DNA of 63,955 nucleotides, filler included, from Klebsormidium nitens (taxonomy: Eukaryota; Plantae; Klebsormidiophyceae): assembly GCA_000708835.1 (NCBI GenBank). It is 6 parts of 6 records of this genome, joined end to end, with 100 filler letters (N's around TTAATTAATTAA, not from the genome) between each part and the next. Parts side by side here need not be neighbours in the genome. Positions count along the whole stretch, not along the records: positions 52,851 to 61,479 come from DF238232.1; 5 more parts are not named here. One strand, 5' to 3'. The notes under the pieces are model-generated. The model saw nothing but the letters and a program-made list of their open reading frames with translations, was not told the DNA's origin and ran no database searches. Of this stretch, positions 33,398-63,759 are shown piece by piece (the stretch's first letter is position 1; each line of letters begins with the position of its first letter). The position numbers were made by a program, and so were the translations under genes.

Positions 33398-33566
33398 AAG
33401 GATCAGAATTTGCAGGCACCCGCAGGGCCGCCGGAGACTGCAGTCAAGCATCTGGTGTAACAGACCAGGGCAGCAGCGGGGGTGCATCTTGTCGCTTCTT
33501 CCCTGCCTGACGAGGCGCTGATTGGGGGTGCTGCTGCTGGTGGGGCCAGCTTGAGTGGGCGCCAGC

Positions 33567-41192: not shown

Positions 41193-41387
41193 CGGAATCT
41201 GCGCGAAACGGCTCTGCATGTCCACGTGACCGAAATTCTGGAAGCCGTAGTTGATGAGCTCGATGTCGTCCTTCGCCCCCAGGTGTCTTAAGATACGGTA
41301 CGTGACCTTCGAGTAGCCGTTCGTCTGATTTGGATGGGTGCTCGCAATGACGACTCGCTTCTTGCCTGCTTCCTGGAGGACCGCCAT
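41193..41387 (-). CDS. N-terminus of a giant-virus-type GT-B glycosyltransferase, truncated by the contig edge
   Basis: KRVVIASTHPNQTNGYSKVTYRILRHL...IELINYGFQNF resembles, from memory, the N-terminal TH..Q..GYSKV...L...GFQ signature of phycodnavirus/mimivirus glycosyltransferases. It is intronless and starts 45 nt after the protease stop. Confidence 0.6.
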
Positions 41388-41432
41388 CCTGACCGTGCCT
41401 ACATGATGTCAAAAAAACCGCTGCGGAACGCA

Positions 41433-42208: not shown

Positions 42209-42527
42209 GCTTGCTTTCCATTCCTCTTTAACATAGAAATACTTTCATCCGGTCTATTTCTGCATCATCACCCGAGTTTCAGCCATGTTGCCAACGATAG
42301 CATAATCTTTCATCATGAATCGCTCATCGGACAAACTACACTATCAATGGCTTGCTAAAACTTTAAAATCTTCTGAATGCCTAAAAACGGGCACAGGAAA
42401 GCAGCACTTCGTCATTCATCCAGTAAGGAGACTTGATGAAAGCTCAGGCTTTTGATCCTGATTGCCAAGTCGTCAATACCTGACTAAGAAGCCTTATCCA
42501 CCTTCCTAACAATGTGGATATTGACGG

Positions 42528-43592
42528 TTACGAGTCCCCTAATATCTTACTTGTCATTAAGTGTTTGTGAATCTCACTTATGACAAGAAAAATATCAAAG
42601 TCCTTATCGTCTGGATTGAATCTAACCCAGGATGCGCCTATTTCAGCAGTGATCCACTGTTGTCGCTTTTCTTCTTTTGACCAGTCGTAGCCACTGTGAT
42701 TCTTTTCGTCGCACTCTACTGCTAATCTGTACTCGGGAAAATACAAATCCAGTCTGTAGATTCCCACTCGGTGCTGGAATACCATCTGTTCTCCTTTGAA
42801 AGCTCTCATCACCGCCGTTATGGTATGTAACTCGTGCGAGTACGCCTTGAATCGCATTGAAAGCGGTATACCAAGTTCTTCCGCAATTGCTAGACTGTTC
42901 GGCATGCGAGAGTTGTAGACAAGGTAAGTCACACCAATCTCCGTAATAAAGCGTGTCAATTTTACATTTTCATTGCCAGACAGCCCTATCTCGCCACCAA
43001 GGGCCACGCAGTCCACGGGGACATGCATTTGGATTGCTTTTTTTGCATTTTGGTACCCGAGCGCTCGCGCGATGTCGTTGCCTTTGAAGTACCAGACCCC
43101 GTCCTGTTGTATTCTCTCAATGCACTGTCCGATTGCAAATAATCCGTCGGTCGTAGATGCTTCTGTGGAAGTTTCCTTTGCCGCACCATCGAGTTTTCGT
43201 TTCTTGTTTGGCCGCTCTCGGAGTGAGGCAACACCGTCGGTCAGCACCCACTCCCGAAGACATGCCACAGACTGAACACCTGATTTTGCGGTAAATTGCA
43301 AGAAGCCTTCCTTGTCTATGTAGCGAGAGTTGCGCTCGTTTCCATCCACAACATGACCTTTGCCAATTGTCATGCGCCCCCCTTGACCTATCAGCTCAGA
43401 TAGTGTGCTGATGCGATGTGTGCTCACGTGTGTCACAACCGCTTTCTTTTGATTGGAGTATCCCAGTAGGTTGGCGACATCATTCCCTCGAAACCAGGGA
43501 TCTTTCTTCTCTTCCCCCACCAAGAGACTGCGCACATTCTTGTCGTCCGATCTGATCAGCTGCTGTTCTGCGTCAAACGTGAAACTCGCCAT
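42528..43592 (-). CDS. Two Bro-N domains plus a C-terminal DUF559/Vsr-like PD-(D/E)xK endonuclease (354 aa), copy 1
   Basis: DPWFRGNDVANLLGYSNQKKAVVTHV and VWYFKGNDIARALGYQNAKKAIQMHV...FITEIGVTYLVYNSRMP (Bro-N). QHRVGIYRLDLYFPEYRLAVECDEKNH...WVRFNPD (nuclease). Confidence 0.85.
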   Translation of the reverse strand: MASFTFDAEQQLIRSDDKNVRSLLVGEEKKDPWFRGNDVANLLGYSNQKKAVVTHVSTHRISTLSELIGQGGRMTIGKGHVVDGNERNSRYIDKEGFLQFTAKSGVQSVACLREWVLTDGVASLRERPNKKRKLDGAAKETSTEASTTDGLFAIGQCIERIQQDGVWYFKGNDIARALGYQNAKKAIQMHVPVDCVALGGEIGLSGNENVKLTRFITEIGVTYLVYNSRMPNSLAIAEELGIPLSMRFKAYSHELHTITAVMRAFKGEQMVFQHRVGIYRLDLYFPEYRLAVECDEKNHSGYDWSKEEKRQQWITAEIGASWVRFNPDDKDFDIFLVISEIHKHLMTSKILGDS

Positions 43593-44134
43593 GCTTGCGT
43601 CCCTACGAGCGTGCGCGAATATATTCTATAACGTTCGGACGCAAGATGCCGACTTTGGCGCCGTCACCTTTCCTTAAAACCCTCCCCAACGTTGGATGCT
43701 CCTTTGGCCATCATCAAGGTTCCTTAAGACGACACACTACTCCCCGGTTATGTTATCTGGATTGGAGAGTCTCTCTTTGTCTTTTTTCGGGTCTGGCGCA
43801 CTCGTCAGGCGTCGTATTTTATCACAACAATCAAAGCCACGTGCTGGCTAGCGGACCAGATAAGTAAAACGTTAGAGCAACACAAACTCTAGTAGAACGT
43901 AAAGAGAGAAGCGGAGCACAATCAAGCTAAAGCATCCTATAATGACATCAAGCGGGGGTTTTCGGTGAGTCTTTGAATACGGCTTGAGAGACGTCTTGGC
44001 CTGCTGAGCTATAATACTGCAAGCAAACAATCAAAAGGCAGTTCGACGGCACGAGGATGAATTATGGCACCCGGACCACCACCATGGCGGAATTGATTAA
44101 GACGATGGAACATGCTGTTGTCTCTAGCAGTTCC

Positions 44135-44947
44135 TCATCTCCCGAAGTTAAGAATGTGCGTATGCACCTGGTTTATCACATCTATGATATTGAAATCAGA
44201 GCAGTCCGGGTTGAAGCGTATCCAACTCGCTCCCAGGGCCTCGGTCAACATTTCAGTCCTTGTCAGATCCTTGTCGGCATCGTAAGACGCGTGACCGTGT
44301 TCGTCGCACTCTACGACCAACTTATAGTCGGGAAAGAATAAATCGACTCTGTATTTTCCCACTGTATATTCTCTTTCCATCTTGTGTCCCCGGAACGCCC
44401 GCCATATGACGGCAACGTAGTGTGTCTCGTGATGGTATTGCTTATACGCAGCAGATATTGGAATACCAACTGCTTCAGCGATCTCGACGCTGTTGGGTAG
44501 TCTCGACAAATGAAGCAAGGTTGCCGCGCCCTCTTCTGTGGTGTATGTTGTCAAAGCTTCGTTCCCGTTTGAACAGAAGCCAATATCGGCCCCACTGAAC
44601 CGAAGTTCAGCAGGAATGTGTAGCTTCCCTGCCTTCTTGCAATCCCTGTAACCAAGTACCGAAGCGATGTCGTTCACTTTGTAGTACATTTGGTTCTTGT
44701 AGAATACGGTGTGTACACTCGGCAAGCGCACAGCCAAATTGGCTTGAATGCTATCAGTACTGTCTCTTGCGTGCTCTGTGCGGATCTTTTTTGACGCAGA
44801 ACCAATTACATCTGAACCGTGTCTTTTGGTCTCCCGTTCCGACGTCAATTCCCTGATTTTCAACTCGATTCTCAATTGCTCCGTCCTTTCTTTTGATTGT
44901 AAAGTCCTCTCCCGTTCAATGGCGAGCTGACATTCCGAATTCTCCAT
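44135..44947 (-). CDS. Coiled-coil, Bro-N and DUF559-like endonuclease (270 aa), copy 1
   Basis: YYKVNDIASVLGYRDCKKAGKLHI...YTTEEGAATLLHLSRLP and YTVGKYRVDLFFPDYKLVVECDEHGH...WIRFNPD. Confidence 0.85.
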   Translation of the reverse strand: MENSECQLAIERERTLQSKERTEQLRIELKIRELTSERETKRHGSDVIGSASKKIRTEHARDSTDSIQANLAVRLPSVHTVFYKNQMYYKVNDIASVLGYRDCKKAGKLHIPAELRFSGADIGFCSNGNEALTTYTTEEGAATLLHLSRLPNSVEIAEAVGIPISAAYKQYHHETHYVAVIWRAFRGHKMEREYTVGKYRVDLFFPDYKLVVECDEHGHASYDADKDLTRTEMLTEALGASWIRFNPDCSDFNIIDVINQVHTHILNFGR

Positions 44948-45341
44948 CTTTGATGAAAATCGTGCAGTAGTCCCGATTCTACTTTCTTAAGCCGTTCGCG
45001 TTTGTGAAGCATTACATCGTGCGACAGTGATGGAGATCCCTGCAGCATTAGTGTACCAAAACACCGCGACCGTAACGTCCTTCTCGATGCCAATTCCCAT
45101 TGTCGGGTTCGATGTTTCCAACAACCTACAGGACGAAGACAGAGCGCGCTTTGCCCTGTTGACGGAACACAACGGGATAAACGGCTAAGTGGATGATACT
45201 TTTATTTACGTGGATCGTTTTTTGCGTTTCTTCAGCAAGGCATGCCTGAAAAACAGGAGAACATAGAATTAAACCTTGGAATACTTCGCTCACCAAGTTC
45301 TTCTCTTGACGAGTTTTCGTANNNNNNNNNNNNNNNNNNNN

Positions 45342-45551
45342 GTTCAGGTCGGTCTCTCGAAGGACGTTCATCAAATGCTGAAACAAGGCCGCCTTAGTTC
45401 TGTGCGCCTTGGAGTAAGGTCGGATGCTCGTGGCGAGCGCCGGCGGAGCCCTCTGCTTTAGGTCCTTCAGGATGTCCCTGATGAGCCCCATCGAAAGGCA
45501 GGAGACGCCATTGTGGAACCGTCGCACTTGCGGGGCGCACTCGTCGCTCAT
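45342..45551 (-). pseudogene. 5' fragment of the Ulp1-like protease (middle repeat copy)
   Basis: MSDECAPQVRRFHNGVSCLSMGLIRDILKDL...KAALFQHLMNVLRETDLN, ending at an N gap. Confidence 0.7.
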
Positions 45552-46183
45552 GCTTGCTTTCCATTCCTCTTTAAGATAGAAATAGTTTCATCCGGTCTAT
45601 CTCTGCATCATCACCCGGCTTACAGCCATGTTGCCAATGATAGCATAATCTTTCATCATGAATCGCTCATCAGACAAACAACACTATCAACAGCTTGCGA
45701 AAATTTCAAAATATTCTGAATGGTTAAAAACGGGCATTCGACAGACACGAAAGCAGCACTTCGTCATTGATCCAGTAAGGAGACTTGATCCTGATTGCCA
45801 ACTCGTCAATACCTGACTGATAAGCCTTATCCACCTTCCTTAAAATGTGGGTGTCTACCAAAACACCGCGACCGTAACGTCCTTCTCGATGCCAATCCCC
45901 ATTGTCGGATTCGATGTTTCCAACAATCTACAGGACGAAGACAGAGCGCGCTTTGCCCTGTTGACGGAACACAACGGGATAAACGGCTAAGTGGATGATA
46001 CTTTTATTTACGTGGATCGTTTTTCGCGTTTCTTCAGCAAGGCATGCCTGAAAAACAGGAGAACATTGAAATTGAACCTTGGAAGACTTCGCTCACCAAG
46101 TTCTTCTCTTGACGAGTTTTCGTCTCTTTTCGGGTCTGGCTTTTTATCCCCGCANNNNNNNNNNNNNNNNNNNNNNNNNNNNN

Positions 46184-46393
46184 GGTCAGGTCGGTATCCC
46201 GAAAGACGTCCATCAAATGCTGAAACAAGGCCGCCTTAGTTCTATGCGCCTTGGAGTAAGGTCGGATGCTCGTGGCGAGCGCCGGCGGAGCCCTCTGCTT
46301 TAGGTCCTTCAGGATGTCCCTGATGAGCCCCATCGAAAGGCAGGAGACGCCATTGTGAAACCGTTGCACTTGCGGGGCGCACTCGTCGCTCAT
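46184..46393 (-). pseudogene. 5' fragment of the Ulp1-like protease (repeat copy 2)
   Basis: MSDECAPQVQRFHNGVSCLSMGL...KAALFQHLMDVFRDTDLT, ending at an N gap. Confidence 0.7.
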
Positions 46394-46702
46394 GCTTGCT
46401 TTCCATTCCTCTTTAAGATAGAAATAGTTTCATCCGGTCTATTTCTGCATCATCATCCGACTTACAGCCATGTTGCCAATGAAAGCATAATCTTTCATCA
46501 TGAATCGCTCATCAGACACACCACACTATCAACAGCCTGCGAAAATTTCAAAATCTTCTGAATGGTTTAAAACGGGCATTCGACAGACACGAAAGCAGCA
46601 CTTCGTCATTGATCCAGTAAGGAGACTTGATCCTGATTGCCAACTCGTCAATACCTGACTGATAAGCCTTATCCACCTTCCTTACAATGTGGGTATCAAC
46701 AG

Positions 46703-47767
46703 TTACGAGTCCCCTAATATCTTTCTCGTCATTGAGTGTTTGTGAATCTCACTTATGACAAGAAAAATGTCAAAGTCCTTATCGTCTGGATTGAATCGAA
46801 CCCAGGATGCGCCTATCTCAGCAGTGATCCACTGTTGTCGCTTTTTTTCTTTTGACCATTCGTAGCCACTGTGATTCCTTTCGTCGCACTCTACTGCTAA
46901 TCTGTACTCGGGAAAGTACAAATCCAGTCTGTAGATTCCCACTCGGTGCTGGAATACCATCTGTTCTCCTTTGAAAGCTCTCATCACCGCCGTTATGGTA
47001 TGTAACTCGTGCGAGTACGCCTTGAATCGCATTGAAAGCGGTATACCAAGTTCTTCCGCAATTGCTAGACTGTTCGGCATGCGAGAGTTGTAGACAAGGT
47101 AAGTCACACCAATCTCCGTAATAAAGCGTGCCGATTTTACATTTTGATTGCCAGACAGCCCTATCTCGCCACCAAGGGCCACGCAGTCCACGGGGACGTG
47201 CATTTGGATTGCTTTTTTTGCATTTTGGTACCCGAGCGCTCGCGCGATGTCGTTGCCTTTGAAGTACCAGACCCCGTCCTGTTGTATTCTCTCAATGCAC
47301 TGTCCGATTGCAAATAATCCGTCGGTCGTAGATGCTTCTGTGGAAGTTTCCTTTGCCGCACCATCGAGTTTTCGTTTCTTGTTTGGCCGCTCTCGGAGTA
47401 AGGCAACACCGTCGGTCAGCACCCACTCCCGAAGACATGCCACAGACTGAAAACCTGATTTCGCGGTAAATTGCAAGAAGCCTTCCTTGTCTATGTAGCG
47501 AGAGTTGCGCTCGTTTTCATCCACAGCATGACCTTTGCCAAATGTCATGTGCCCCCCTTGACCTAGCAGCTCAGATAATGTGCTGATGCGATGTGTGCTC
47601 ACGTGTGTCACAACCGCTTTCTTTTGATTGGAGTATCCTAGTAGGTTGGCGACGTCATTCCCTCGAAACCAGGGATCTTTGTTCTCTTCCCCCACCAAGA
47701 GAATGCGCACATTCTTGTCGTCGGATCTGATCAGCTGCTGATCTGCGTCGAACGTGAAACTCGCCAT
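46703..47767 (-). CDS. Two Bro-N domains plus DUF559-like endonuclease (354 aa), copy 2
   Basis: Full-length paralogue of 42528-43592 with scattered amino-acid changes. Confidence 0.85.
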   Translation of the reverse strand: MASFTFDADQQLIRSDDKNVRILLVGEENKDPWFRGNDVANLLGYSNQKKAVVTHVSTHRISTLSELLGQGGHMTFGKGHAVDENERNSRYIDKEGFLQFTAKSGFQSVACLREWVLTDGVALLRERPNKKRKLDGAAKETSTEASTTDGLFAIGQCIERIQQDGVWYFKGNDIARALGYQNAKKAIQMHVPVDCVALGGEIGLSGNQNVKSARFITEIGVTYLVYNSRMPNSLAIAEELGIPLSMRFKAYSHELHTITAVMRAFKGEQMVFQHRVGIYRLDLYFPEYRLAVECDERNHSGYEWSKEKKRQQWITAEIGASWVRFNPDDKDFDIFLVISEIHKHSMTRKILGDS

Positions 47768-48331
47768 GCTTGCGCCCCTACGAGCGTGCGCGAATATATT
47801 CTATAACGTTCGGACGCAAGATGCCGACTTTGGCGCCGTCACCTTTCCTTCAAACCCTCCCCAACGTTGGATGCTCCTTTGGCCATCATGAAGGTTCCTT
47901 CAGACGACACACTTCTCCCCGGTTATGTTATCTGGATTGGAGAGTCTCTCTTTGTCGTTTTCCGGGTCTGGCGCACTCGTCACTCATGATGTAAGGCATA
48001 CAATCAGGCGTCGTTTTAACACAACAATCAAAGCCACGTGCTGGCTAGCGGACCAAATAAGTACAACGTTAGAGCAACACAAACTCTAGTAGAACGTAAA
48101 GAGAGAAGCCGAGCACAATCAAGCTAAAGCATCCTATAATGACATCAAGCGGGGGTTTTCGGCGAGTCTTCGAATACGGCTTGAGAGACGTCTTGGCCTG
48201 CTGAGCTATAATATTGCAAGCAAACAATCAAGAGGCAGTTCGACGGCACGAGGATGAATTATGGCACCCGGACCACCACCATGGCGGAATTGAATAAGAC
48301 GATGGAACATGCTCTTATCTCTAGCAGTTCC

Positions 48332-49144
48332 TCATCTCCCGAAGTTAAGAATGTGCGTATGCACCTGGTTTATCACATCTATGATATTGAAATCAGAGCA
48401 GTCCGGGTTGAAGCGTATCCAACTCGCTCCCAGGGCCTCGGTCAACATTTCAGTCCTTGTCAGATCCTTGTTGGCATCGTAAGACGTGTGACCGTGTTCG
48501 TCGCACTCTACGACCAACTTATAGTCGGGAAAGAATAAATCGACTCTGTATTTTCCCACTGTATATTCTCTTTCCATCTTGTGTCCCCGGAACGCCCGCC
48601 ATATGACGGCAACGTAGTGTGTCTCGTGATGGTATTGCTTATACGCAGCAGATATTGGAATACCAACTGCTTCAGCGATCTCGACGCTGTTGGGTAGTCT
48701 CGACAAATGAAGCAAGGTTGCCGCGCCCTCTTCTGTGGTGTATGTTGTCAAAGCTTCGTTCCCGTTTGAACCGAAGCCAATATCGGCCCCACTGAACCGA
48801 AGTTCAGCAGGAATGTGTAGCTTCCCTGCCTTCTTGCAATCCCTGTAACCAAGTACCGAAGCGATGTCGTTCACTTTGTAGTACATTTGGTTCTTGTAGA
48901 ATACGGTGTGTACACTCCGCAAGCGCACAGCCAAATTGGCTTGAATGCTATCAGTACTGTCTCTTGCGTGCTCTGTGCGGATCTTTTTTGACGCAGAAAC
49001 AATTACATCTGACCCGTGTCTTTTGGTCTCCCGTTCCGACGTCAATTCCCTGATTTTCAACTCGATTCTTAATTGCTCCGTCCTTTCCTTTGATTGTAAA
49101 GTCTTTTCCCGTTCAATGGCGAGCTGACATTCCAAATTTTCCAT
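48332..49144 (-). CDS. Coiled-coil, Bro-N and DUF559-like endonuclease (270 aa), copy 2
   Basis: Full-length paralogue of 44135-44947. Confidence 0.85.
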   Translation of the reverse strand: MENLECQLAIEREKTLQSKERTEQLRIELKIRELTSERETKRHGSDVIVSASKKIRTEHARDSTDSIQANLAVRLRSVHTVFYKNQMYYKVNDIASVLGYRDCKKAGKLHIPAELRFSGADIGFGSNGNEALTTYTTEEGAATLLHLSRLPNSVEIAEAVGIPISAAYKQYHHETHYVAVIWRAFRGHKMEREYTVGKYRVDLFFPDYKLVVECDEHGHTSYDANKDLTRTEMLTEALGASWIRFNPDCSDFNIIDVINQVHTHILNFGR

Positions 49145-49535
49145 CTTTGATGAAAATCGTCCAGTAGGTCCCGATTCTACTTTCTTAAGCCGTTCGCGTT
49201 TGTGTTACATCGTGCGACAGTGATGGAGATCCCTGCAGCATTATTGTACCAAAACACCGCGACCGTAACGTCCTTCTCGATGTCAATCCCCATTGTCGGA
49301 TTCGATGTCCACAACAATCTACAGGACGAAGACAGAGCGCGCTTTGCCCTGTTGACGGAACACAACGGGATAAACGGCTAAGTGGATGATACTTTTATTT
49401 ACGTGGATCGTTTTTCGCGTTTCCTCAGCAAGGCATGCCTGAAAAACAGAAGAACATTGAAAGTGAACCTTGGAATACTTCGCTCACCAAGTTCTTCTCT
49501 TGACGAGTTTTCGTCNNNNNNNNNNNNNNNNNNNN

Positions 49536-52500
49536 ACTCTCTGGATCTCTGTCGGCCAACGGCGCCACATTGAGCGCTCCGCTCGCTCTCGGCTCCAACG
49601 GAATCTCCACCACCGGCCCCATCTGTTCCAGCAGTAACCGGGCCACGGCGCTGTACTCGGCGACGGTGGATTCCGGGACCCTCATAGCGAATTCCAACCT
49701 CACCGTCGGAGCCGGATCCACCACCAGCCTGTCCGCGGACGTGCTGCCCGGAACCAACAACGCGTACGACGTGGGAGCGTCTTCGAACGCCTGGAAGAAT
49801 GTGTACGCCGGTTCAGCCACCCTCTCAGGATCACTCTCTGCGAACGGCGCCACCTTGAGCGCCCCGCTCTCCCTCGGCTCAAACGTAATCTCTACCACCG
49901 GCTCCATCGCCTCCAGCAGCAACAGAGTCGCCACTCTGTATTCTGGGACGGTGGATTCCGGGACCTTAAAGGCCAACTCCAACCTCACCATCGCACCCGG
50001 ATCCACCACGAGCCTGTCCGCTGACGTGCTGCCCGGAAGCAACAACGCCTTCGACGTCGGATCCTCCTCCAATGCCTGGAAGAACCTGTATGCCGCCACC
50101 GCCACGCTCTCTGGATCTCTGTCGGCCAACGGCGCCACCCTGAGTGCCCCGCTCGCCCTCGGCTCCAACGGAATCTCTACCACCGGCTCCATCGCCTCCA
50201 GCAGCAACAGAGTCGCCACTCTGTATTCTGGGACGGTGGATTCCGGGACCCTCAAGGCCAACTCCAATCTCACCCTTGCGGCTGGCTCCACCACAAGCAT
50301 CTCTACCGATATGATGCCCGGCAGCAACAACGCGTATGACGTGGGAGCGTCTTCGAACGCTTGGAAGAACGTATACGCCGGTTCCGCCACCCTATCTGGA
50401 TCAGTGGCTGCAAACGGCGCCACGTTGAGCGGGCCGCTCGNNNNNNNNNNNNNNNNNNNNNNNNNNNNNNNNNNNNNNNNNNNNNNNNNNNNNNNNNNNN
50501 NNNNNNNNNNNNNNNNNNNNNNNNNNNNNNNNNNNNNNNNNNNNNNNNNNNNNNNNNNNNNNNNNNNNNNNNNNNNNNNNNNNNNNNNNNNNNNNNNNNN
50601 NNNNNNNNNNNNNNNNNNNNNNNNNNNNNNNNNNNNNNNNNNNNNNNNNNNNNNNNNNNNNNNNNNNNNNNNNNNNNNNNNNNNNNNNNNNNNNNNNNNN
50701 NNNNNNNNNNNNNNNNNNNNNNNNNNNNNNNNNNNNNNNNNNNNNNNNNNNNNNNNNNNNNNNNNNNNNNNNNNNNNNNNNNNNNNNNNNNNNNNNNNNN
50801 NNNNNNNNNNNNNNNNNNCCTGTCCGCTGACGTGCTGCCCGGAAGCAACAACGCCTTCGACGTCGGATCCTCCTCAAACGCCTGGAAGAACCTTTACGCC
50901 GCCACCGCCACGCTCTCTGGACCTCTGTCGGCCAACGGCGCCACTTTGAGCGCCCCGCTCGCCCTCGGCTCCAACGCAATTTCCACTACCGGCTCTATCT
51001 CCTCCAGCAGCAACAGAGTCGCCACTCTGTATTCTGGGACGGTGGATTCCGGGACCCTCAAGGCCAACTCCAATCTCACCCTTGCGGTCGGCTCCACCAC
51101 GAGCATCTCTACCGATATGATGCCCGGCAGCAACAACGCGTACGACATGGGAGCGTCTTCGAACGCTTGGAAGAACGTATACGCCGGTTCCGCCACCCTA
51201 TCAGGATCACTGGCTGCAAACGGCGCCACGTTGAGCGGACCGCTCGCCCTCGGATCCAATAGCATCTCCACCACGGGCACCATTGCCTCCTCGAGCAACA
51301 GGGCCACGGCGCTGTACTCGGGGACGGTCGATTCGGGAACGCTCAGGGCCAACTCCAACCTCACCCTCGGCGCCGGCTCCACGACCAGCCTCTCCGCGGA
51401 CGTCCTGCCGGGAAGCAACAACGCATACGACCTGGGCTCTTCGACCGGTGCCTGGAAGAGCCTCTACGCCGGCTCCGCCACCCTCTCGGGGTCTCTCTCT
51501 GCCAGTGGCGCCTCGTTGTCGGCACCTCTCAGCATGGGAGGCAATGCGGTATACACCACAGGTACCGTCAGCAGCAGCAGCAACCGGGCGTCCGTCGTCT
51601 ACTCTACATCCGTTGATGCGGGCTCTCTGACGGTCAATAGCAACGCTTCGATCGCCGGCGCGTTGACGTGCTACTCCCTGAACACCCAGAACAGCAACCT
51701 CAACGCCGGTTCGGGGAGCATCTCGGGGGGGGCCATCAGCGGAACCTCGGCGAGCCTCTCCGGTCAGCTCACGTGCAAGGCAGTAGACACCCAAGGCTGC
51801 AACATCAGCGCGGGGGCCATAAACGGCGGGGCCTTCGTCGGCACCAGCATGAGTGTGGGCACGGGCTCGGTGAGCGGGGGTGCGGGCAGCTTCAGCGGGG
51901 ACGTGACGGTCTCCGGCAAGCTGCTGGTCGGAGGTTCGATCGACTACATCAGCACGAGCGAGCTCTTGGTCGCAGACAAACACGTCACGTTGGCGGCCAC
52001 GTCTAATCCGACCGACGCCACCGCTTCTGGGGCCGGACTCTACGTGCAGGGCTCAAACTACGCCGCTTCCAACGCTACCCTATCGTTCACGTGGAACCAA
52101 GGCTGCAACGGTAACTACTGGCTGCCGAAGGGAGGCAACTTGGCACTCCCGGGTACAGCGGGGTCCAAGATGGTCACGCTGAGCACCACCTCGAACGGAG
52201 CCCTCCAGTTGCTATCCGACGACGGCACCTCGGCGACGAGCACGGCTCTCGTGGGCGTGTCTCTCATCGCCTCCGGATCCAATCTGGATCTGGGGAGCAC
52301 CTCCAATGCCTGGAGCACGCTCTACGCATCCAACGTCGGCACGAGCGCGAAACGGGTCGCCACGATCTACGCATCATCCGTCGACGCGGGGGCAGGGGCT
52401 TTCGGCAGCAACGTCGGCGTGACTGGGAGCCTCGTAGCCGCGAACGGCCTCACCTCTTCCAACGGCCTCACCGTCAGCTCGGGGACCCTGACGCTGCCCG

Positions 52501-52750
52501 CAAGCTCCGTCGTCAACGCGGCCATCACGTCCGGCCTCGACGCGACCAAGATCACCACGGGCACATTCGGAGTGGGTGCTTTCGGAGGATGTAATATCTC
52601 GACGACGGGGACTCTCGGGGCGGGGCCATCCACCCTGAGCACCGTCTCGTGCACCACGCTCACCACAAACAACAGCAACCTGACGGTGGGTTCCGGATCC
52701 GTCACCAGCGGCCAGCAGAACCCCACGACCCACGCCACATACGATCTTGG
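49536..52750 (+). CDS. Large Ser/Gly/Asn/Thr/Ala-rich protein with 95-aa tandem repeats; putative virion fibre or surface protein, both ends and an internal segment missing
   Basis: 285-bp period (ANGATLS at 49555, 49840, 50125, 50410; then 50931, 51216, 51501). The repeat carries DVLPGSNNAFDVGSSSNAWKNLY. The unique region has LLVADKHVTLAATSNPTDATASGAGLYVQG. The frame is open on both sides of the 50441-50818 gap. Confidence 0.7.
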
Positions 52751-52850: not shown

Positions 52851-53172
52851 CAAACGGTTGACATACCGTTCACGAAGAAAAATCACAAGATACCATTGCA
52901 CGCAGCCGTTGTTGCTTGGACCCGAGCTTATGATTACAGAGTCATCAAATACAATTGATCTTCAATATCAAAGACTCTCTGACATAATAAAAATCATGCC
53001 TTAAGGGTCATTACATCCATTAATACTTCATGTAGCGCGTAGTTATCTTGAACCAATCAGGCAATCTCGGGCCAACTTACTGTGTGCCAAGCTCACTCGC
53101 ATTCAACCTCCCATATTCGATACAATTAAGAACTTCAATACATTACGACCAGATTACTCAATAGCTTGCTGA

Positions 53173-56100
53173 CTAACGAACCACAATCATACATTCCTCA
53201 GGATCGTCCTTGCCTGCCGGCGAGCTCAGATCCTCTAGCAAAGGGTAACCAGACGGCCTACGCAATAAATGATCAAGATCGCTTGCATCTACCTCGTTGA
53301 GAAACGCTCGGACTGCAGGCTCCAGCTGTTCCCGATGCTGCCAGACTCGAGGGACTTCACGGAATTGCAGCTTGACGAGCTTCGCCATTCTGAGAACGTG
53401 CTTCCGCTCCAGCTTGTACTTGTAATCGCTGTTCCCGGACGCCGACTCGTGCTGCTTCCCCTTCCCTCGTCGTGGGCGGCTCACCTCGATTGCCTTCCCA
53501 AGCTTGAGGCCCATGTGCCCGAGCACAACGTTCATCACCGCCTTGAATTGGACGGGATCGAGTTAAGCTTTTCCCTCTTTGGGCGCCGGCAAATGGATCC
53601 GGAACATCTCGGAGACGGGCTTCTCCGACATCGCGGTCTTTGAACCGACCTGCCTAGGGCGACCTTTGAACAGGTCTGATCGCAATAGCCTGCCTTTGAG
53701 TCCGCCTGCAAGGAGCGAGCGCGTTTCACCGCCCACGTCAAACGCATGCGCCAGGCCCAAGTCCTTGAGCAGCCCTCGCGCGGTCTCCAACATCTTGACC
53801 TCGAGACTCTGGCGGGCCACCGCCCCCTCGTCGAGGAACCGCCCTGGAAGTAGCACCTTCAGCAGAAAGTCGAGCTTGTTTGAGAACGGGGGCTTGTACT
53901 CGGCCTTCGTCTCCTTGAAAAAGTGCTCGTCAAGGTCCCTGAGGCCGTAGAACTGGCAGGCCTCGTACCTGATCACCTCGACACTCTGCGAACCCGTGTC
54001 CCTCTTCGTGTCTCGCAACCTTCTCAACTCCTCAAACTCCGCCGCACTGATCGCCCTCGCGCCAATGATCTGTGACGCCTCTGCGTCTAGCCCTTTCCGC
54101 CTCTTACTCTTTTTCGAAAGCTCTTCGGGTTGCTCGACCTCCACCACATGGCCGGCTCGCGAGACTTGCAGCTGGAACTCGTGAAGCAGGCGCGCGTCCG
54201 ACTTTCGCCGCTCCGCTTCCGTATGCGCGAACGTCCGGAAGAGGGGGCCGTCCTCAATCAACCGGACAACTTTGCCGGGGTCCTCGGTCCTTGACGCGAC
54301 TCGCCTCCATGCAGCCGTCACTTCGCTGTTGCAGGCTTGCAGAAACTGCAGCGTCTCCGCCGTGGTCACGCGTTGTGGAGGGCCAAGAAATCCCTGCAAT
54401 CAGGAACACAAAATGAGCGGATCGTCTTGCGCACTTACGCCACAGCCAGATGTCACCGTTCCATCAGAATTAGAGATCACCTAAGAGACTTAAAGAAGCT
54501 CATGTCGACCTCCGATCAAGAGACGGAATTAAGTCCCCGTAAAAGGACAGCAGCACTGCCTTCAAACGACTTCGAGACGTGCTTAGATATAAGCCTTTGC
54601 TCTCCTTAAGAATGTCCCATAATGCTCACACCATGCAGGCGTGAACGATGGGCAATAAAGCTTACCGTTTTAAAGCAATATGCACTCTGCAATAGCCAAA
54701 ACGTCGGATTGGATTCAAGGCAGGCACGTGGAACTTGACTTCCCACCTTGAGTTGCTCACGACTGAGGCCACGGGAAGGCCCCACACCTGGCTGAGACGC
54801 AGGCGCCCGGCCGAGAGGGGAGTCGGCCGCAACTTGCTGGTCCAAGCGGTCGACATCGGCATCCTGGGGGCGGAAAGAAGAAACGGAAACGTCAACCTTT
54901 CGATGTTCGAGCACGCGTCTCAGACTTGAGCCTCGAAAAACCGCTCAGAGAAGCAATTGCACAAAAAGATAATGCATGGCTCGACGTGAGCAAACAGGAT
55001 CCGGGAGTTCGTGTAACCAGATGAGGCAAATACCTGCGAAGCAGAGTCGTCGTCGTCGGCTTCCGGTGTCTGCGGCGCTGTGGGTGTCGTTCCCTGCGGA
55101 AAAAGACCCGTCACACTTCAGACAACGTACAGTATGCTGTTCGAGATTGGGGCACACACAACTTTTGTAGACCTTTCGTACTAATGTAGACTTGAGGCAG
55201 CTAGGTGAGTAGCAGCATTTGCTAATCTTGATTCTTTGGGCACTCGCTGAAAGGTTTTGCAGACCTGAAGCGAATCCCATCGAGCTTAAAGAGAGGTCAA
55301 CGCCATCCTGATCAACAGAAACGCGGGTTGTGCTCAACAGAAAGGATGTGCACACTCAACAGCGGCGACGCAACTCAATTCCTGGAGACCTCAAAGTTGT
55401 TTTTTTTCCAAACGCAAAAGATCACGTGGCCTTCTCTTAGAGGGGTCCTTTAAGCTGCAGTCCTGAGCTTGGCAAATCCCGTACAGAGTTTGGGGCCTGG
55501 AGTTTGGGGCCTGGTCTGAGCCCTCCATCGAAAGTTCTGACGCTAGCAGATGCTGAACACAAAAGCTTTGCATTGGGGGGCGGATATCAGGTCTAGTTTG
55601 GCCCCCCAATCTGATGATCCTAAACAGATTCGCTCTCGAACGCTTGAGTTAGGGCCAAACGCAAGACGAGGTTTCTAGAAGACTCTTGGAGGACTCTTGC
55701 ATCTTGATTGCTCAGACTGTGGACAGATCTAAGATCTTGAGCTCTCAAGTGCAATCTGCTCACCTGCTGTTCCGGAGTGCAGAGACGCGTGGCTGGGATC
55801 TCTTGCGCACAGTCGAGCATCACGGAGATGGACGACTGGACGAAACAATGAACCAGCGGACTCTCCGTTTTCCGCACCCGCAGCGTCGCCTGCCAGGCTG
55901 CCCGAGCCGTCGTGCTCTTCTTGCACATGTAGAGGAACTTGGTGTGGAACCAGGGAACGTCGAAATTCACCCCTGCCTCGACAGTGGGGCTGTACATGAG
56001 CAAGCGAACCTTCCAGTTTTCGGCAACGTTCTTCAGGAGAGCCGTCGTTTCGCCCCCGCTCAGGGCCTTATGGATGAGGATGTCTGTGTCTGCAAGCCCG

Positions 56101-59100
56101 AGCGAGTGCCGCGACATGACTTGGTCCCGGATGCGGTCCAGGACCTTTGCGGACATGCTGACGACGACCACGTTCTTGCCGGCTGCGAGATCCTCGACGA
56201 TCCGATCCAACCACTTCTTCTCATCCTGACCGACACGAAACGTTAGAGGCACCTGCGCATAAAGCGGTACAAGAAATGAGCGCGCTGTGGGCTGAATGTA
56301 TGTGAGAGAGCATTGCACACTGGCCCGTCCTTGATTCCAGAAGCGAACCTGCTGCGCTATGAAACACAACTTCCGTTGGTACTCAAGTGACGGTATGGCC
56401 GGGCCCCATAAGCGGTTCAAGAGGTGCTCTAAGGTGATCAACGCAACACATTTGCTTAGACGAACTCAAGGAAAGGGCCTGGCAGAAGGCCCGAGATCAC
56501 TGATTCGTGGTTCCGCTCCGACCAAGGGAGGTGCACCAAGGGAGCGGCCAAAGCAAGGCATGCTACATTCTGGGCACTTCCAAGCGCACAGCATCCGAAC
56601 GGCCAGAATTCAGCCGTATTGCGTTGAGAAGCGGTCACGCTAATCATATGGGATATTTCGAGGGGCTCACCGCTGCCCTTCTTGTGTTGATGATGAGCTT
56701 CCCGGGCACATGTGCAAGCCGGAAGAAGTCGTGCTCCCGCTGTCCGTATCCATCGTCCATGGCCAACACGCGCTTCGCCCGCTGCACAATCTCCAGGAAC
56801 AGCTCACTGGTCTCCATCCCGTTCCTCACAGTCGCCGCGGAGAGGTGCGCGAGGATGCTCGCCACCTCGTCGAGGATCACGAGATCGAACGGGGCCACCT
56901 CGCCAATGCTGCCCCGCCGGAGCTTAAGGAGGCTGTCCACCTGAACCACGATTTCGGGAAAGTCCTTCCGAGACTGCAGGGCCGTTAGGAGGTTGTGCTT
57001 GTTGTCCGGATCCGGGAACCACACGTTTTTGTGATCGTAGTCCGCCTTCAGGTCGAGGTAATTTGCGGTGCGGGGAAAGCGCGCTTTGAGGTCTTGAGCC
57101 TGGGCCACTCGGTACGTGATCATGATCGACGTGTGGGCGCGGCCGCTTGCTTGCCAGAGCTCGTCCCCAACCGCCCCGCAGAACACCGTCTTGCCAGTGT
57201 TCACGCCCGACCGGATGCCGAGCAGGGGGAATCTGCCCTCGATCCACCTGCACGTGTCGACCACAGAGTTGTCAACACGACCTGACACACTCTAAGGCAA
57301 GAATTAGGCCAACGTTCTCAACAAAGGTTGGCTATGCAGTGACCTCTTGTATCGTACGTGTCGAATTCACCTGCAAGCAGCTCCGAATGGTAGGTAAGCG
57401 CTTGGAACTTTGTGTATACGGCCTGAGATCGAAAGCTTGCAGCCCTGCGCTGGTCTCAGAACAGACACGTGCCCATTAAATAATGGTCGTAAATGCCTTG
57501 AAAGGAGGACACGTGACAGAAGGACATTCGTCAGGTTTTGCATGCAGGCCTTGTGGCAAAGAAAGAAACCTTGGTGGGAGAAAGGAACCTGGCAGTAGGT
57601 GGGCGCCAAGGAGCGCCCGCTGATACAGCACGCAATCTTGAAAATAGACACACGGTACAAGAAAAGCTCCTTCTAAAGGTGAGCGTCCCGGAAGCGCCGC
57701 AAGTCTCGCAACAAGCCCCACGTTGTCCCCCATTTTCGCCACGTGGGTTTGCGGCCGAAACAAGATCTTGCCAACCTAGCAGATTCTGAAAGCTTGTCAC
57801 ATCACAATGCGTACGCACCTACTCATTTGGCGGTATTACTTACTCGTTGGCGATGGTGTTTAGCTTCATCAGATCGTCCGGCATCCTCCGCCCCGCTGCT
57901 ACTTCGGCCACGAGCTCAGGGGTCGACGCGCCAGGGACACGCGTAAGGTGCTCCATGTCTACCTTGACGGCGCCCGTCTCGTACGAGATGTTGTCCTCGA
58001 ACAGGTCCCCCAGGCAGTATGCCCTCTCGACACAGGGGACGTCCGAGTCCCCACCCTCGGTGTTTGGCTGAAACACAGAGCATAGATCTTGCCGTTTGGG
58101 TTGAGGTGACAGGTTAAATTCTGTCGGTTCTCGTGGATCCGACCCGTGTAGCACGGCTCTGCGCGATCGCTGTAGTTGTAGCGATCTGGGCCCTCCTCGT
58201 AAGCGCTAGGGTGCAAGCGCTCCCTGAGAAGCGCTAGCATGCGGGCCTTGACGAACTCCTCGTTCTTCGAGCTGCGCTCCGTGCCCCGTTCGGACATCAT
58301 ACGAGGGTTGTTGAACCTCTCGTGGAGCCTTTGGGGCACTTCGAATGGCAGCTTGACCTCGTCACGGGCCTGCAGCACAGCACGAAGACAGCTGGTCACG
58401 AGCGCAATCATGCCAAAACTAAGTCCCCTGTCAAAATGTGAGAAAGGAACGTCAAGACAATTGATCAAACAGAGGAAACCTTGCACTATCTTGCTGCGAA
58501 AAGCCGAGTGCATCAAAAGGCAACGATTCCACCAAGCTTCACAGCTGATAAATCGAAAACGAGGAGTGTGCCACAAGCAAAGTCCTTCATTCTGCAATTA
58601 TGAAGGCCGCGCTTAAAGGAAACACTGCTCAGGCTCGCCGCAAAATGAACAGTTTGGCCATGAAGCCGAAAAACAAAGCGTGTACCAAGAAGCTGTGTAT
58701 TACTTGTTTAAGAATCTAATGGGCCTTTTCTGGTACATCCTGCAGGTAGGGCCGGGCAGCCCATCAAGCGAAAAACCAGCAGTGTGTACCAAGAAACGGC
58801 GTATTACTTCTTGAAGAATCTAAAGGGCTTTTCTGGTACATCCTGCAGGGTATGGTCGGCCTTGCCCATCAAGCGCACAATCCGCCCCGTACCATGTAAG
58901 GCTGTATAACTCTTCAGAGAACTAAAAGGCCGTTTTCTGGTACACCTTTCAGGACGTGACCGACCTGGCGGGTGTGGGGCCTGGATGGCTTGCTCACCTC
59001 GACGGGCTCCAGCCAGGTCACCAGAGCATCCTTCCAGGAATGGGCCGGATCGATGCACGACAAGACGCTCTCCGGCTTCTCGATCTTGGCGCTCCCCGGC

Positions 59101-61088
59101 GTCCGCCACTCGCGGTCTTTCGAGTACACGTTCAGGTCTATGAGAGCCGCGACCGCGGGATCCCACGGGAGCAGCCTCTTCTTGAGGCGCCTCGCAAAGT
59201 GGAGAGCCCCCTCGGTGTTGGAGCCGAAGACGAGCTGACGGGGGGACAGCTGGTTGATGGTGAGGTGGAGGCTGAACTTGGTTTGACCGGGGCTTTCGAG
59301 CCAGATAAAGCTGCTCGGCTGCAGCTCATGGTCGTACTGTTCCTTGAACACAACAGCGGCCCACTTCTCGATGATCCGGATGACCTCCTCCCCCGTGTAC
59401 CTCTCCCCACCCTCCACGACCTCCCCATCCGCCCCGGTCACCGGCTGACGCTTGAAGGGGAGCCCGTCCTTGCCGTCGAGGTCGAGGTAGGGCTTGCAGG
59501 GCTTCCCGTTCTGGATGATCTCCGTCACCGACCCGTGCCGCCCCTCCAGCTGCGACCGCGCCGTGTCCCAATCCGGATATGACGCAAAGCTGCGCCACGG
59601 GACCCTCACCCCTTTTTCGACCTTTCCGGACCACTTGTGCAGGACCACTTGCGCCTCGTGGTTTAGGAGCGCCGCCTCCTGCTGCATGAAGAACTTTGGG
59701 CCGGGAAGGCGGCCCCTGGGGTTCGACCCGGTCTGATGGAAGCAGTTGGCGCCGTGCTCCCGCACACGCAGCACCCGAAATCCGTCCTTCTTGAAGACCT
59801 CGTTGCCGGTCAGCGGGTCAGAGTGCACCGCTGGCTCAGGCTCCGCCACAAGCTCCTCGCGCGCCATTGAGAATCTGCATGAGCGATGAAGAAGAAGTCA
59901 AACACCGCAGCGTAAGAGAGGCTGACATACCTGCGTAACCTTCGGCCGTGCTCATGAACACGTCCTGACCAGTACAGGTCGCTTTTGTGGAGACAGGCCC
60001 ATGTTGGTGGACGGGCTTGATGGGCTGTGGTGCATCAGAAAAGCCTCGCTAACCACGCCTCGCGCTTTACAGAGAATGATTCAGCACATTCCGAAGCACC
60101 GCAACACTTGATGCGCCGGCCGACCTTGCACCAAAGCATGCACCACAAAGCGGGCTCGCACTAGCAAAGAGAGAACGACAAGTCTCCCCCAATCATGGCC
60201 TTTAGTATCTAGAACACTGGCTGATGTACACGTATCAGCAATCTACAAAAAGCAGTCGTGGCGACCAATCGTAGCTCGGGAGCTACCATTGCTATCGGTC
60301 TGAAATGCTTAGTTCTTGATTGTTAGTTGATGTACACTATGCATTGTCCGATTGATACAGATTTTCGACAGCGAATCACCCAAGAAGCACAAGAGAAGCG
60401 GGGGTGACCTGCAGCCCCCATCAAGTTTGTAAGGTTCACCACATTGTAGACCTTCAAGAAGAGCACTTACACAGACGTCTGCGGCGCTTCATCCCGGGCC
60501 CGCCGCCTCTGCATCTCGCTCCGCATGGGCGCCAGCGCATCGTCCGGGGTCTCGTCTGCCGCGGATCGAGCTGTCTCTTCCTCCATCTCCATCAGCCGGT
60601 ACAAATCCAGTGTTCCGGCGTCCGGCTGCGTCGAGTCGTCGATGCCCCGGTCATCCTCGGATGTGGGCTCTTCGTCGGACTCGGTCTCGTCTGACGTTTC
60701 TTGAATGTCGACGGAGCCGGCCTCTTCGTCAGACGCCGACGCAACCTCCTGCAGGATATAAGAATCAAGAATGGTTCAAGGATTCGGGTCTTCATTCGGT
60801 CATGCTGGCCAGGGGCTGCTCATTGATTTTCATATAAAGTTAACAAAGGCATCTGCGCCCAGGGTGCTTAGCCAAGCAATGAAGACAGAGCCTATGCCTT
60901 TGTGTGCACAAACCAGCCCTGGCATGCCCCTCGCACTCTCACCGATCGCGCACACTTCTTCCTGATGGCCACAACACACGATTGCTCACCGCTTCGTCCG
61001 GGCTTCCGGTCCGCATCCGAGTACCGGTGGGCGCCGGGGAGCTCTCCCTGCTCGAGGCGGTCCTATTCCGACGTGCGACCTCCTGCAT
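53173..61088 (-). CDS. Intron-containing primase-helicase fusion of about 1,414 aa: acidic N-terminus, AEP (NCLDV/herpes/PrimPol-type) primase, Zn-binding module, UL9-like origin-binding SF2 helicase and C-terminal domain. It carries one frameshift and one in-frame stop, so it may be a recent pseudogene.
   Basis: Manual exons: 61088-60990, 60748-60471, 59874-58998, 58369-57844, 57247-56671, 56252-55764, 55093-55034, 54863-54747, 54393-53173. All eight introns are GT-AG and phase-compatible once the exon-4 frameshift is allowed for. AEP motifs: EII...PCKPYLDLD, KFSLHL, IDLNVYSKDREWR. Zn module: PCYTGRIHE...YALCFS...PC. Helicase: SGVNTGKT, VQVDSL, LVILDEVASIL, YSPTVEAGVNFD, QATLRVR. Lesions: 1-nt shift near 58070 and TAA at 53565-53563. 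Exons 1, 7 and 8 are the least certain. Confidence 0.75.
58680..58953. repeat. Degenerate tandem repeat of about 104 bp (about 2.5 copies) inside intron 3 of the primase-helicase gene
   Basis: gtgtaccaagaa...tattact...aagaatctaa.ggg..ttttctggtacatcctgcagg...cccatcaagcg recurs at about 58680 and 58784; ttttctggtaca recurs near 58932. Confidence 0.75.
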
Positions 61089-61171
61089 CCGAGCATTGGG
61101 GCACGCTCAATTCAGGGCAGGCGTCATCAGTACTTAGGGGGACGCCTCGGCGCTCAAAGGCCATCACAACC

Positions 61172-61479
61172 ATGTGCTTTGACACCAAGTTCACGGGCCA
61201 TTTTGCTCTTTCCCGCCCCCTGACCGCCGAAGAGAGCGCGATTCTGAAGGCCGTGCACGACTACCGCCCTAAGGATGGCCTGGAGCTACCCTCTGCGGCT
61301 CCGGGTCAAGAGAGGCCGGTCAAGATCGAACGGAAGGGGGTCAAGCACAACTACGGTGGGGAGGGATTCCACATCTTCAAGGAATTTCCCTCCTTCGACT
61401 GCCGTTGGACTGTCTCACGCGATAAGCGTGCTCTTGTCTGGGACGAAAGGGGCCCCTTCAAGAACTATGTGAGCTGGTT
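61172..61479 (+). CDS. Hypothetical protein of phage/large-DNA-virus type, 3'-truncated by the contig edge
   Basis: MCFDTKFTGHFALSRPLT...CRWTVSRDKRALVWDERGPFKNYVSW resembles, from memory, a hypothetical family with T.F.G.F.L..PLT...C.W......WD..EKFY.Y..WL. Its ATG is 83 nt from the divergent primase-helicase ATG. Confidence 0.5.
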
Positions 61480-61850: not shown

Positions 61851-62397
61851 GGAATCTGAGCTCGGGAGGGGGGGCAGCCGCTGCAAGGGCAGCCTTAGTG
61901 GAAGCGCCGGCCTCAGATCTGAGGGGCGCAGCATATCAGCAGGCTGGCAGGCTGAGGCGCGCTGCGCCAGAAGACCAGCCTTCAGCGAAGTGTGCGAGAA
62001 GATCAGGCTGAGGCGTGACACGCCAGAAGACCAGCCTGCAGTGCACGTTTGGCAGAGCCCCCCAGCAAGTCCGCTGAAGCGCAGGCCGCCTAACAAAAGG
62101 GCAGTGCTCCAGTTAACCTGTAGAGCGCGCCAAGTTAGAGCTCCCCAGGCGTGGTTGAGCTCCCGGCAGGCCCCCCTTTGTGTGTGCGCCGCTGGTTCCT
62201 GTTAAGCGCACCCTTCAGGTGAGCGCACGTATCCTGAGCCCTGCGGCCGATCACAAGGATAAACGGTGAGTCCTGTTCAGGGGGGTGTGCACTGCGCGCT
62301 TTTCAGCGCCTGACTTTTCAGGACCGTTGTCAGCTGCAGAATGGGTTTTTCTGTGACTGGCGTGTTTCGATGGCTTGCGCTCGTGAACCTGGTCATG

Positions 62398-63759
62398 ATG
62401 GGCAGCGAGTATGGTGGTGCAGCCTTGCTTGCGGGGCCGTCAGGGTCTGTTGGATTGTTCAGCGGGCGACCAGGCACCCAGTCTGTGGAGGATTTTGAGG
62501 ATCGACTGCTGGCGGCCTACGCCAAGGCCAAATCGAAAGATAAGAAGTTGACCGAGGCTGAGTTCTTGCTTCAGCTGCCCGCCTATCTTGAGCATGAGGC
62601 GCTGCAGTTGTGGCGCAAATGCAGAAAGGATATCTTAAAAAAGCCAGAGGATGCTTCTGATTATAATCCAATTGCTGATCTGATTGCGCTCTTTAAAGAG
62701 CATTTTGGGGTGGCAAGTGCAGCAAAGGTTCGCGAGTTGCAGACCTTGAAGAAGCGCGAGGATGAAACCTGCAGAATGCTGAAAAGCCGCTTGGAGCGCC
62801 TCGCTGAGGAAACAGGTCTGTTGAATGCACGCGAGCAGGCGCTGACGTTTGTGAATGCCTTGCCCACTGCAGTGCGCGAGCGAATTGAGCCGATTCTCTG
62901 GGCTAAAAGCGCGAATGGCATCTACAGCTTGGATGACGCATTTCAAGCTGCTGAGCGTGTTGAGTTGGCGCAGGCGTATGCATCTGGCATGCGGGGGTGG
63001 GCAGAGTCTAGCGCGCCAAGAACGAAACAATCGTCTGCTCATGCGGCCAGTGCCGCCGACTCTTCCTCTTGCTACAGGTGTGGGCAGCTTGGCCATCAAG
63101 CAAGCAACTGCCCAGGGACGGACAGCCGCTGCAACTCTTGCCACAAGCGCGGCCACACAGAGGCAGTTTGCTGGACGGCGCACCCCGAGCTCAAGCCCGA
63201 CTGGACCAGCGATGGTAAGAGCAGCGGAGGCCAAGAGCGCGGGCTTGCGCAGCGAGTGGATGCGCTAGCAGCCCAAGTTGAAAAGCTAACCCTACAGATG
63301 GCCACCCTTGTGCAGGGCCGTCGGGTTGGTCATGCGCGGCAGGCTGCAGTTCAGCAGCGTCCCATGGAGTCTGACGATGAAGTGGACGAGGCCACTGATT
63401 CCAAGCAGGCTGCTTACAGCGCGCTTAACGCTCAAAGGCCCACTTATGATCTTGCGCGTGATTGGCAGGTCGTTGACACCAGCGATCCGGCGTATGTTGC
63501 TGCGTCTCACAAACAATATTTGCAGGTTACTCAACCTAACGACTCTCATGCACCCAAGCCTGCAGCTGATGCAGCATACAGCGCTCAGGGTGCCAAGCAC
63601 CCAATGGATGCCGCCTTTGAAGACGAGGAGTACCGAGCCCGCTGCGCAGCTCACGACGCCTACCGCGCTCAGAAGGAGAAGGAGGAGGAAGGCCGGAAGT
63701 GGGCCGAGAAGTTGCTGGACGCGTGGGAGGAGCGCCAGCTCAAGCGGCAGGGTGAGTAG
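62398..63759 (+). mobile_element. LTR-retrotransposon gag ORF (probably Ty3/Gypsy-like) with two CCHC zinc knuckles
   Basis: LFSGRPGTQSVEDFEDRL...AYLEHEALQLW...LFKEHFG...LKKREDET...FVNALP (gag core). Knuckles CYRCGQLGHQASNC and CNSCHKRGHTEAVC. No pol is present in the window. Confidence 0.8.

Follow-up and report, generated by a model that had tools for sequence, protein, structure and literature searches.

An intron-rich primase-helicase gene family of viral type in the alga Klebsormidium nitens, seen through a broken copy

The genome of the streptophyte alga Klebsormidium nitens holds a family of genes in which an archaeo-eukaryotic primase (AEP) is joined to a UL9-like helicase, and here we describe one broken copy, on the minus strand at 53173-61088 of a 63,955-nucleotide (nt) stretch of DNA from assembly GCA_000708835.1 (the window; positions count along its whole length). 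The window consists of separate scaffolds chained by N44-TTAATTAATTAA-N44 linkers, and the true context of the gene is only 52851-61479 (DF238232.1). The copy is broken, and its gene is a multi-copy one in Klebsormidium; we put at about even the chance that this gene served to initiate replication of nucleocytoviruses residing in the nuclear genome of the alga, having long evolved under host splicing. A viral origin of the gene, as proposed in an initial annotation of the window, is supported by fold matches to giant-virus helicase-primases and by matches to UL9 and PrimPol.

Gene structure

Our splice model of the window has nine exons and eight introns (Table 1), in agreement with the initial annotation. 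The introns are 170-670 nt long, have GT...CAG ends in every case, and contain stops in all three frames; GC content is 0.47-0.54 in introns versus 0.59-0.70 in exons, and CpG is 0.78 versus 1.04. The spliced product, with X placed at both breaks, has the 1,414 amino acids (aa) that had been predicted, and it aligns to the K. nitens protein KFL_001680170 with 1255/1412 identities (89%) and 2 gaps. KFL_001680170 comes from an independent annotation as a gene model and is not transcript proof; splicing is read here from sequence and from paralogue gene models.

The junction 57843/57248, which had been said to join primase to helicase, reads ..NE/WIEG..SGVNTGKT (the slash marks the splice). Because KFL_001680170, matching at 89% over 1,412 aa, spans both halves, we treat the primase and helicase halves as one gene on sequence grounds. 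It is highly improbable that they are two separate genes, or fragments stitched together by chance. The exon joins do rest on sequence and gene models, and one paralogue model, KFL_008290035, stops at this junction; however, it terminates at the same ..ANE, as expected of read-through into the intron 4 donor. The junction is crossed in frame by 8/10 paralogue models (one ends exactly there and one is partial before it), single-open reading frame (ORF) relatives hold both halves, phases agree at 8/8 exon junctions, and the two-gap alignment covers the whole model. Homologues with the fused architecture, whose absence would have spoken for two genes, are plentiful (31 matches).

With one frame slip and one premature TAA, the window copy reads as a broken gene. 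The slip lies in a run of three A's, and the TAA is at 53565-53563 in exon 9. The K. nitens reference assembly was built with Newbler from 454 and Illumina reads (PMC4052687); if the window derives from it, a sequencing error may account for the slip, given the homopolymer run. The earlier suggestion of recent inactivation is plausible for the TAA. Two further observations concern the model: an in-frame GTAAGC donor at 54667-54662 (minus), 81 nt beyond the exon 8 donor, looks stronger, but the paralogue alignment favours the donor at 54746; and the 104-nt repeat of intron 3 (58682-58944) contains an internal inverted match and is a candidate binding site.

Table 1. Features of the gene and its scaffold (positions in the window)
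Feature	Position	Strand	Description
Gene-bearing scaffold	52851..61479		8.6 kb, flanked by linkers; gene occupies nearly all
Head-to-head neighbour	61172..61479	+	5' 102 codons of a phage-like hypothetical gene (~161 aa in relatives), truncated by scaffold end
Exon 1	60990..61088	-	Matches KFL_001680170 aa 476-505; ATG overlaps TGCAG acceptor at 61087-61083; likely internal exon in family
Exon 2	60471..60748	-	Acidic low-complexity region, Klebsormidium clade-specific; occupancy 0.06 in 13 non-Klebsormidium relatives
Exon 3	58998..59874	-	AEP primase domain, motifs I-III
Tandem repeat	58682..58944		104-nt unit x 2.5 copies, within intron 3
Exon 4	57844..58369	-	Cys/His zinc-binding-like module and linker; one-base frame slip near 58063-58065
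Intron 4	57248..57843	-	596 nt, phase 2; joins primase and helicase halves
Exon 5	56671..57247	-	SF2 RecA1, Walker A and B; PF02399 E 8.6e-9
Exon 6	55764..56252	-	SF2 RecA2, motifs IV-VI
Exon 7	55034..55093	-	60 nt; acidic insert, lineage-specific
Exon 8	54747..54863	-	117 nt; lineage-specific insert
Exon 9	53173..54393	-	C-terminal helical region, candidate DNA-binding part; 90% identity with KFL_001680170 aa 1480-1885

Protein domains and predicted structure

The domain order is AEP, zinc module, superfamily 2 (SF2) helicase, and C-terminal region, and the motifs listed for these domains by the initial annotation are intact in all 11 blocks inspected. The AEP carries DxD as YLDLD (aa 255-259), SLH (aa 327-329, within KFSLH), and the third Asp (IDLNVY..REWR); the C/H/C zinc residues, Walker A and B, and motifs III, V, and VI are likewise present. 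Assignment of the helicase to the Herpes_ori_bp/UL9 family held up: PF02399 scores above its cut-off on exon 5, and the origin-binding protein of herpes simplex virus 1 (HSV-1) is the top match in profile and fold searches. A Herpes_UL52 match, for which the initial annotation had proposed a search, did not appear in the exon stretches scanned against Pfam, and a GARS_A match on exon 6 was weak, below cut-off, and set aside.

A profile of 30 family members searched against the PDB gave the HSV-1 protein at E 2.4e-40, human PrimPol at E 1.4e-16, and poxvirus D5 at E 1.3e-3. The structure model of a 90% identical paralogue, KFL_013180020 (pLDDT 73), matches giant-virus helicase-primases over most of its length—those of Bodo saltans virus, Dasosvirus, Indivirus, and Marseillevirus—and, in the PDB, UL9 and PrimPol. 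The homologue from the chlorophyte Tetrabaena is compact, and its model (pLDDT 88) aligns to PrimPol with Z 23.0 and a root-mean-square deviation (rmsd) of 2.7 over 219 residues, and to UL9 residues 25-810 with Z 25.7 and rmsd 12.5 over 524 aligned residues. With an intact AEP and a UL9-closest helicase in one polypeptide, the window product is, by sequence, of the known AEP plus UL9-like SF2 helicase type (R8/F1055L/SF2_hel).

The Klebsormidium family and its relatives

A word-limited search with the AEP exon among proteins of 512-2000 aa returned 12 matches, the best nine of them K. nitens proteins at 64-91% identity, none identical; no cellular PrimPol was among the 12. Ten annotated K. nitens paralogues sit on ten scaffolds and share 46-88% mutual identity over their aligned length, so that with the window copy there are at least 11 family copies. 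The gene is hence helicase-fused and multi-copy, and the possibility raised earlier of an ordinary single-copy cellular PrimPol orthologue does not describe it. All motifs are intact in 3/4 paralogues aligned; KFL_010140010 lacks motif I, and KFL_002890010 lacks the zinc module.

In a quick LG+G4 tree of 50 rows and 982 columns, the window copy and the ten paralogues form one 11-row clade (SH-aLRT 100) on a stem of 1.08 changes per site. This clade is nested in a 40-row group of environmental and chlorophyte proteins, including one from Tetrabaena socialis, and its sister group is not resolved by the tree; a protein of Chlamydomonas sp. UWO 241 belongs to the cluster of one of the group's members. 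The tree carries long-branch and compositional-bias warnings and includes no cellular PrimPol or named virus row. Against 13 non-Klebsormidium relatives, introns 3, 4, and 5 alone interrupt the ancestral core, and the other five flank sequence without counterpart in relatives.

Two loci, L018 and L019, hold close relatives, each a single ORF carrying both halves, and have two neighbours in common. The L018 relative adjoins a frameshifted C962R-type AEP/D5 gene, and the L019 relative lies near a DUF5672 gene. The environmental L018 relative lies some 800 nt short of the end of its contig, with complex tandem repeats after it, and this region (13309-13810) may be a genome terminus. A distant family member, with a UL9-like helicase, shares the 22.7-kb IMG/VR contig L005 (44-15105) with a virophage (Sputnik-type) minor capsid gene; this virophage-like genome may use the helicase family. 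Among the matches listed, alignment scans found only distant AT-rich virus or phage loci, and a GTDB scan gave 3 matches, distant and helicase-only.

Comparison with known systems

Intact-AEP SF2 helicases are known from some Yaraviridae (mriyavirus SF2_hel), mimivirus R8, African swine fever virus pF1055L, and ostreid herpesvirus 1 (OsHV-1) AAS00940 (bioRxiv 2024.02.29.582850). Since these members are already described, the AEP-helicase fusion is not in itself new; what is unusual is its intron-rich, multi-copy, 2A-tagged form. New are the single long-stemmed clade of the window copy with ten annotated K. nitens paralogues, the N-terminal extension of nine of them with its invariant 2A-like ESNPG motif, and the lack of a listed D5 primase-helicase for the endogenous nucleocytoviruses reported in K. 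nitens. Our literature search found no paper on this family in Klebsormidium, most subscription papers lying outside it. The Klebsormidium family shares with R8, pF1055L, AAS00940, and SF2_hel the domain order, the intact AEP motifs, and the full-length fold matches to giant-virus members. Unlike them, it has the eight introns, an acidic insert after the helicase, and no fewer than ten diverged copies within a single algal genome, and its paralogues carry an N-terminal extension of 250-570 aa with the 2A-like motif.

HSV-1 UL9 (PF02399) is the best PDB match by both profile and fold; mammalian herpesvirus UL9, however, has no AEP domain (bioRxiv 2024.02.29.582850), which the Klebsormidium protein adds, and origin binding here is predicted by analogy. 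The AEP domain resembles that of human PrimPol by profile and fold. PrimPol itself stands alone: it is a single-copy repair enzyme and carries no helicase. The cyanobacterial plasmid protein CyRepA1 places the same helicase family behind a primase-related domain in a one-protein Rep (PMC10079941), but that domain is the Toprim-related DUF3854, whereas the Klebsormidium protein has an AEP. CyRepA1 (NF042913) matches exon 5 at E 2.7e-14 and the helicase part at E 1e-29, both below cut-off (53-145 bits against a curated 200), and no DUF3854 appeared in Pfam scans.

Host-type introns have precedents too. Large DNA viruses had been said rarely to carry spliceosomal introns, a view overtaken by their documentation in viruses of algae and other protists. 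Punuivirus, a functional integrated algal virus, has them in 61/506 genes, with a mean of 2.5 per intron-bearing gene and 176 nt in length, linked to latency, and Chlamydomonas giant endogenous viral elements have 25-72 (10.64898/2026.10.09.758095; PMC9693826); intron-rich mirusviruses have also been described. As in these integrated nucleocytovirus genes of green algae, the introns here are GT-AG, but there are eight of them, of 170-670 nt, and the host is a streptophyte. The punuivirus text does not mention a primase or helicase (10.64898/2026.10.09.758095). With both the fusion and introns in integrated algal giant viruses already known, the present combination is less of a surprise.

N-terminal extension and 2A-like motif

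The window ATG at 61088 lies in ATGCAG/GAG, an acceptor resembling the gene's others, and 9/10 paralogue models extend further 5'; for these reasons it is probably not the family's start, a correction to the earlier gene boundaries. Only KFL_013180020, of the ten, starts at the window copy's ATG. The phage-like neighbour starts 83 nt from this ATG and runs on the other strand. Two arrangements would account for it: an intron that contains the neighbour, or loss of the N-terminal module in the window subfamily.

The extension is missing from environmental relatives and from the window copy. All nine extended paralogues carry hydrophobic-[GAC][VI]ESNPG, 248-397 aa ahead of the primase (GVESNPGP x2, CVESNPGP x1, AVESNPGP x1, NPGW x3, NPGM x2); [VI]ExNPG occurred in 7/27,000 shuffled sequences, and ESNPG is invariant while the following 50-residue block is 49% identical. 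We predict from these sequences that ribosomes skip at the motif. GxExNPGP is a non-canonical functional 2A core (PMC13405545), and an expanded core, (D/G/C/N)(V/I)ExNPGP, has been proposed, in which Trp at the last position kept >70% activity in vitro (10.64898/2026.09.24.754024). Weighing against a 2A function are that the full expanded core is present in 3/9 paralogues, that Asp-12 and the NPGP residues tolerated no change in the preprint's own assay (10.64898/2026.09.24.754024), and that the fusion of extension to primase rests on gene models. Neither the window copy nor the non-Klebsormidium proteins compared showed a 2A-like motif. Two 2A-like matches at the DNA level were dismissed as antisense coincidences within the window's Bro-N genes. 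EsV-1-7 repeats, suspected for the N-terminal Cys/His motif of the paralogues, found no match in Pfam or Atlas (best score 0.78).

Origin and possible function

The reading as a nucleocytovirus replication initiator is favoured because the full-length fold matches are giant-virus helicase-primases, the 11 Klebsormidium rows form one clade amid environmental and chlorophyte proteins, and close relatives adjoin the C962R-type AEP/D5 and DUF5672 genes. It is favoured also because the only scaffold neighbour is another virus-type gene and because three of the four paralogues checked keep every motif. Published work adds two reasons: punuivirus shows an integrated algal virus with host-type introns (10.64898/2026.10.09.758095), and K. 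nitens carries several divergent nucleocytovirus insertions, with 5 DNA polymerase (40-92% similarity), 6 major capsid protein, 6 ATPase, and 5 VLTF3 genes, for which the consulted text and Table 1 list no D5 primase-helicase (PMC5294986). Silencing methylation is reported to be enriched on K. nitens genes of viral origin.

If the enzyme works as the biochemistry of UL9 and PrimPol suggests, its C-terminal region together with the helicase would bind and open the origin, the zinc module and AEP would lay primers, and a separate polymerase, viral or host, would extend them; the enzyme may stand in for D5 in K. nitens viruses. Judging from the paralogues, prolonged transcription by host machinery would have led to the gain of three introns within the ancestral core and of a further five flanking newly added low-complexity exons, and an N-terminal zinc-finger-like module would have been gained, to be split off during translation by the 2A-like StopGo motif.

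A number of points weigh against this reading. The copy number (10 annotated plus the window copy) exceeds the 5-6 reported for core viral genes (PMC5294986), and eight introns are well over the punuivirus mean. D5 replacement would not be general, because L018, the closest non-Klebsormidium relative with context, adjoins a D5-type gene; the blank D5 cell itself is weak support, because the 'unknown clade' symbol of Table 1 is lost in the text copy (PMC5294986). No close relatives turned up in IMG/VR when it was scanned with the K. nitens and Tetrabaena proteins and with the motif pattern. The 8.6-kb scaffold holds no capsid, DNA polymerase, ATPase, integrase, or HUH gene and no terminal repeats, its flanks being 322 nt downstream and 391 nt upstream. 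Its tetranucleotide profile correlates at r 0.82 with the host-gene scaffold of the window versus 0.69 with the virus-like one, and the latter, adjacent in the window, shows long uninterrupted ORFs. Copy number, intron density, and host-like composition keep two other readings alive.

In one of these, which we hold as a tentative possibility, the gene would be the only replicase of a smaller nuclear DNA element that copies itself, whether a replicon lacking a capsid or a virus the size of a mriyavirus or virophage. Such an element would have captured the gene from a giant virus and spread in Klebsormidium, carrying cargo such as the phage-like neighbour. The ten diverged paralogues on ten scaffolds would suit such an element, as would the position of 7/10 as first or second gene of the scaffold (from locus names), like repeats at assembly breaks. 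Small replicons use the family (mriyavirus SF2_hel, the virophage-like L005, and the sub-threshold CyRepA1 match), host-like intron density suits a long-resident transposon, and 2A-like motifs are typical of selfish elements (10.64898/2026.09.24.754024). However, the short flanks show neither element ends nor a target duplication, and no gene for an integrase, transposase, HUH protein, or capsid; the closest relatives with context resemble large-virus DNA. Mriyaviruses, with genomes of 35-45 kb, have an HUH endonuclease and a double jelly-roll capsid as hallmarks; both are missing from the scaffold, itself too short to exclude them. The neighbour, for its part, has 6 homologues at 59-84% and phage relatives at 29-31%, with a weak PHROG match (phrog_38666, E 1.3e-5) and no match in an IMG/VR protein scan; none of the ten paralogues found shares a scaffold with KFL_006880030, its sole annotated homologue in K. 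nitens, a point against this reading.

The other reading, a long-domesticated host multigene family that segmental or subtelomeric duplication multiplied and whose products work on host DNA, we consider improbable. Telomere-linked helicases offer an analogy. Host-like introns and composition, the long stem with motifs retained, the placement of three paralogues on 111-164 kb scaffolds, and the bias to scaffold ends are in keeping with it. Many models, however, are partial or damaged (the window copy, KFL_002890010, KFL_010140010), a turnover unlike that of a needed host gene; the neighbour is virus-type, and no orthologue from another streptophyte was among the matches of the AEP-exon and fused-homologue searches.

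Other features of the window

Fibre-like, Bro-N, and gag-like genes past the linkers were ruled out as context, being on separate scaffolds, and an Rfam scan of the gene's own scaffold gave 0 matches. The scaffold at 41193-52750 looks like endogenous giant-virus DNA, with a Ulp1-type protease (Peptidase_C48), a fibre-like gene with 285-nt repeats, and two tandem pairs of Bro-N and DUF559-like nuclease genes about 4.2 kb apart. At 21396-41092, a 64% GC scaffold bears host genes rich in introns that, by eye, resemble biotin carboxylase, ClpP, and AP-2 alpha; its composition is unlike that of the other pieces, and it may derive from another organism. The first piece includes a WD40 gene at 13664-15760 (minus), of AN11/TTG1/LWD type by eye, and the last has a gag-like ORF with a zf-CCHC knuckle at 62314-63759, likely a long terminal repeat retrotransposon fragment.

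Implications

Whether introns in integrated giant-virus genes reflect decay or adaptation to nuclear, latent life is debated. Here a relative of land plants carries ten or more diverged copies of a core replication enzyme that gained introns yet kept its catalytic motifs, so that the age of the introns, the selection on the copies, and their expression lend themselves to direct comparison. If D5 is replaced in the K. nitens inserts, those viruses would follow a different replication logic; if the copies share ends, they would represent a new mobile element.

More speculatively, and with some doubt, Klebsormidium may harbour an undescribed nuclear DNA replicon: a latent nucleocytovirus lineage that lacks D5, or a capsid-less self-copying element descended from one. 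Its intron-rich replicase would be made as a polyprotein and freed from an N-terminal zinc-finger-like partner by 2A skipping. StopGo has been placed mainly in RNA viruses and retrotransposons (10.64898/2026.09.24.754024); were this true, a recoding trick of those elements would be acting on a DNA-virus replication enzyme, and a functional 2A site in such a replicase would extend the range of StopGo past them.

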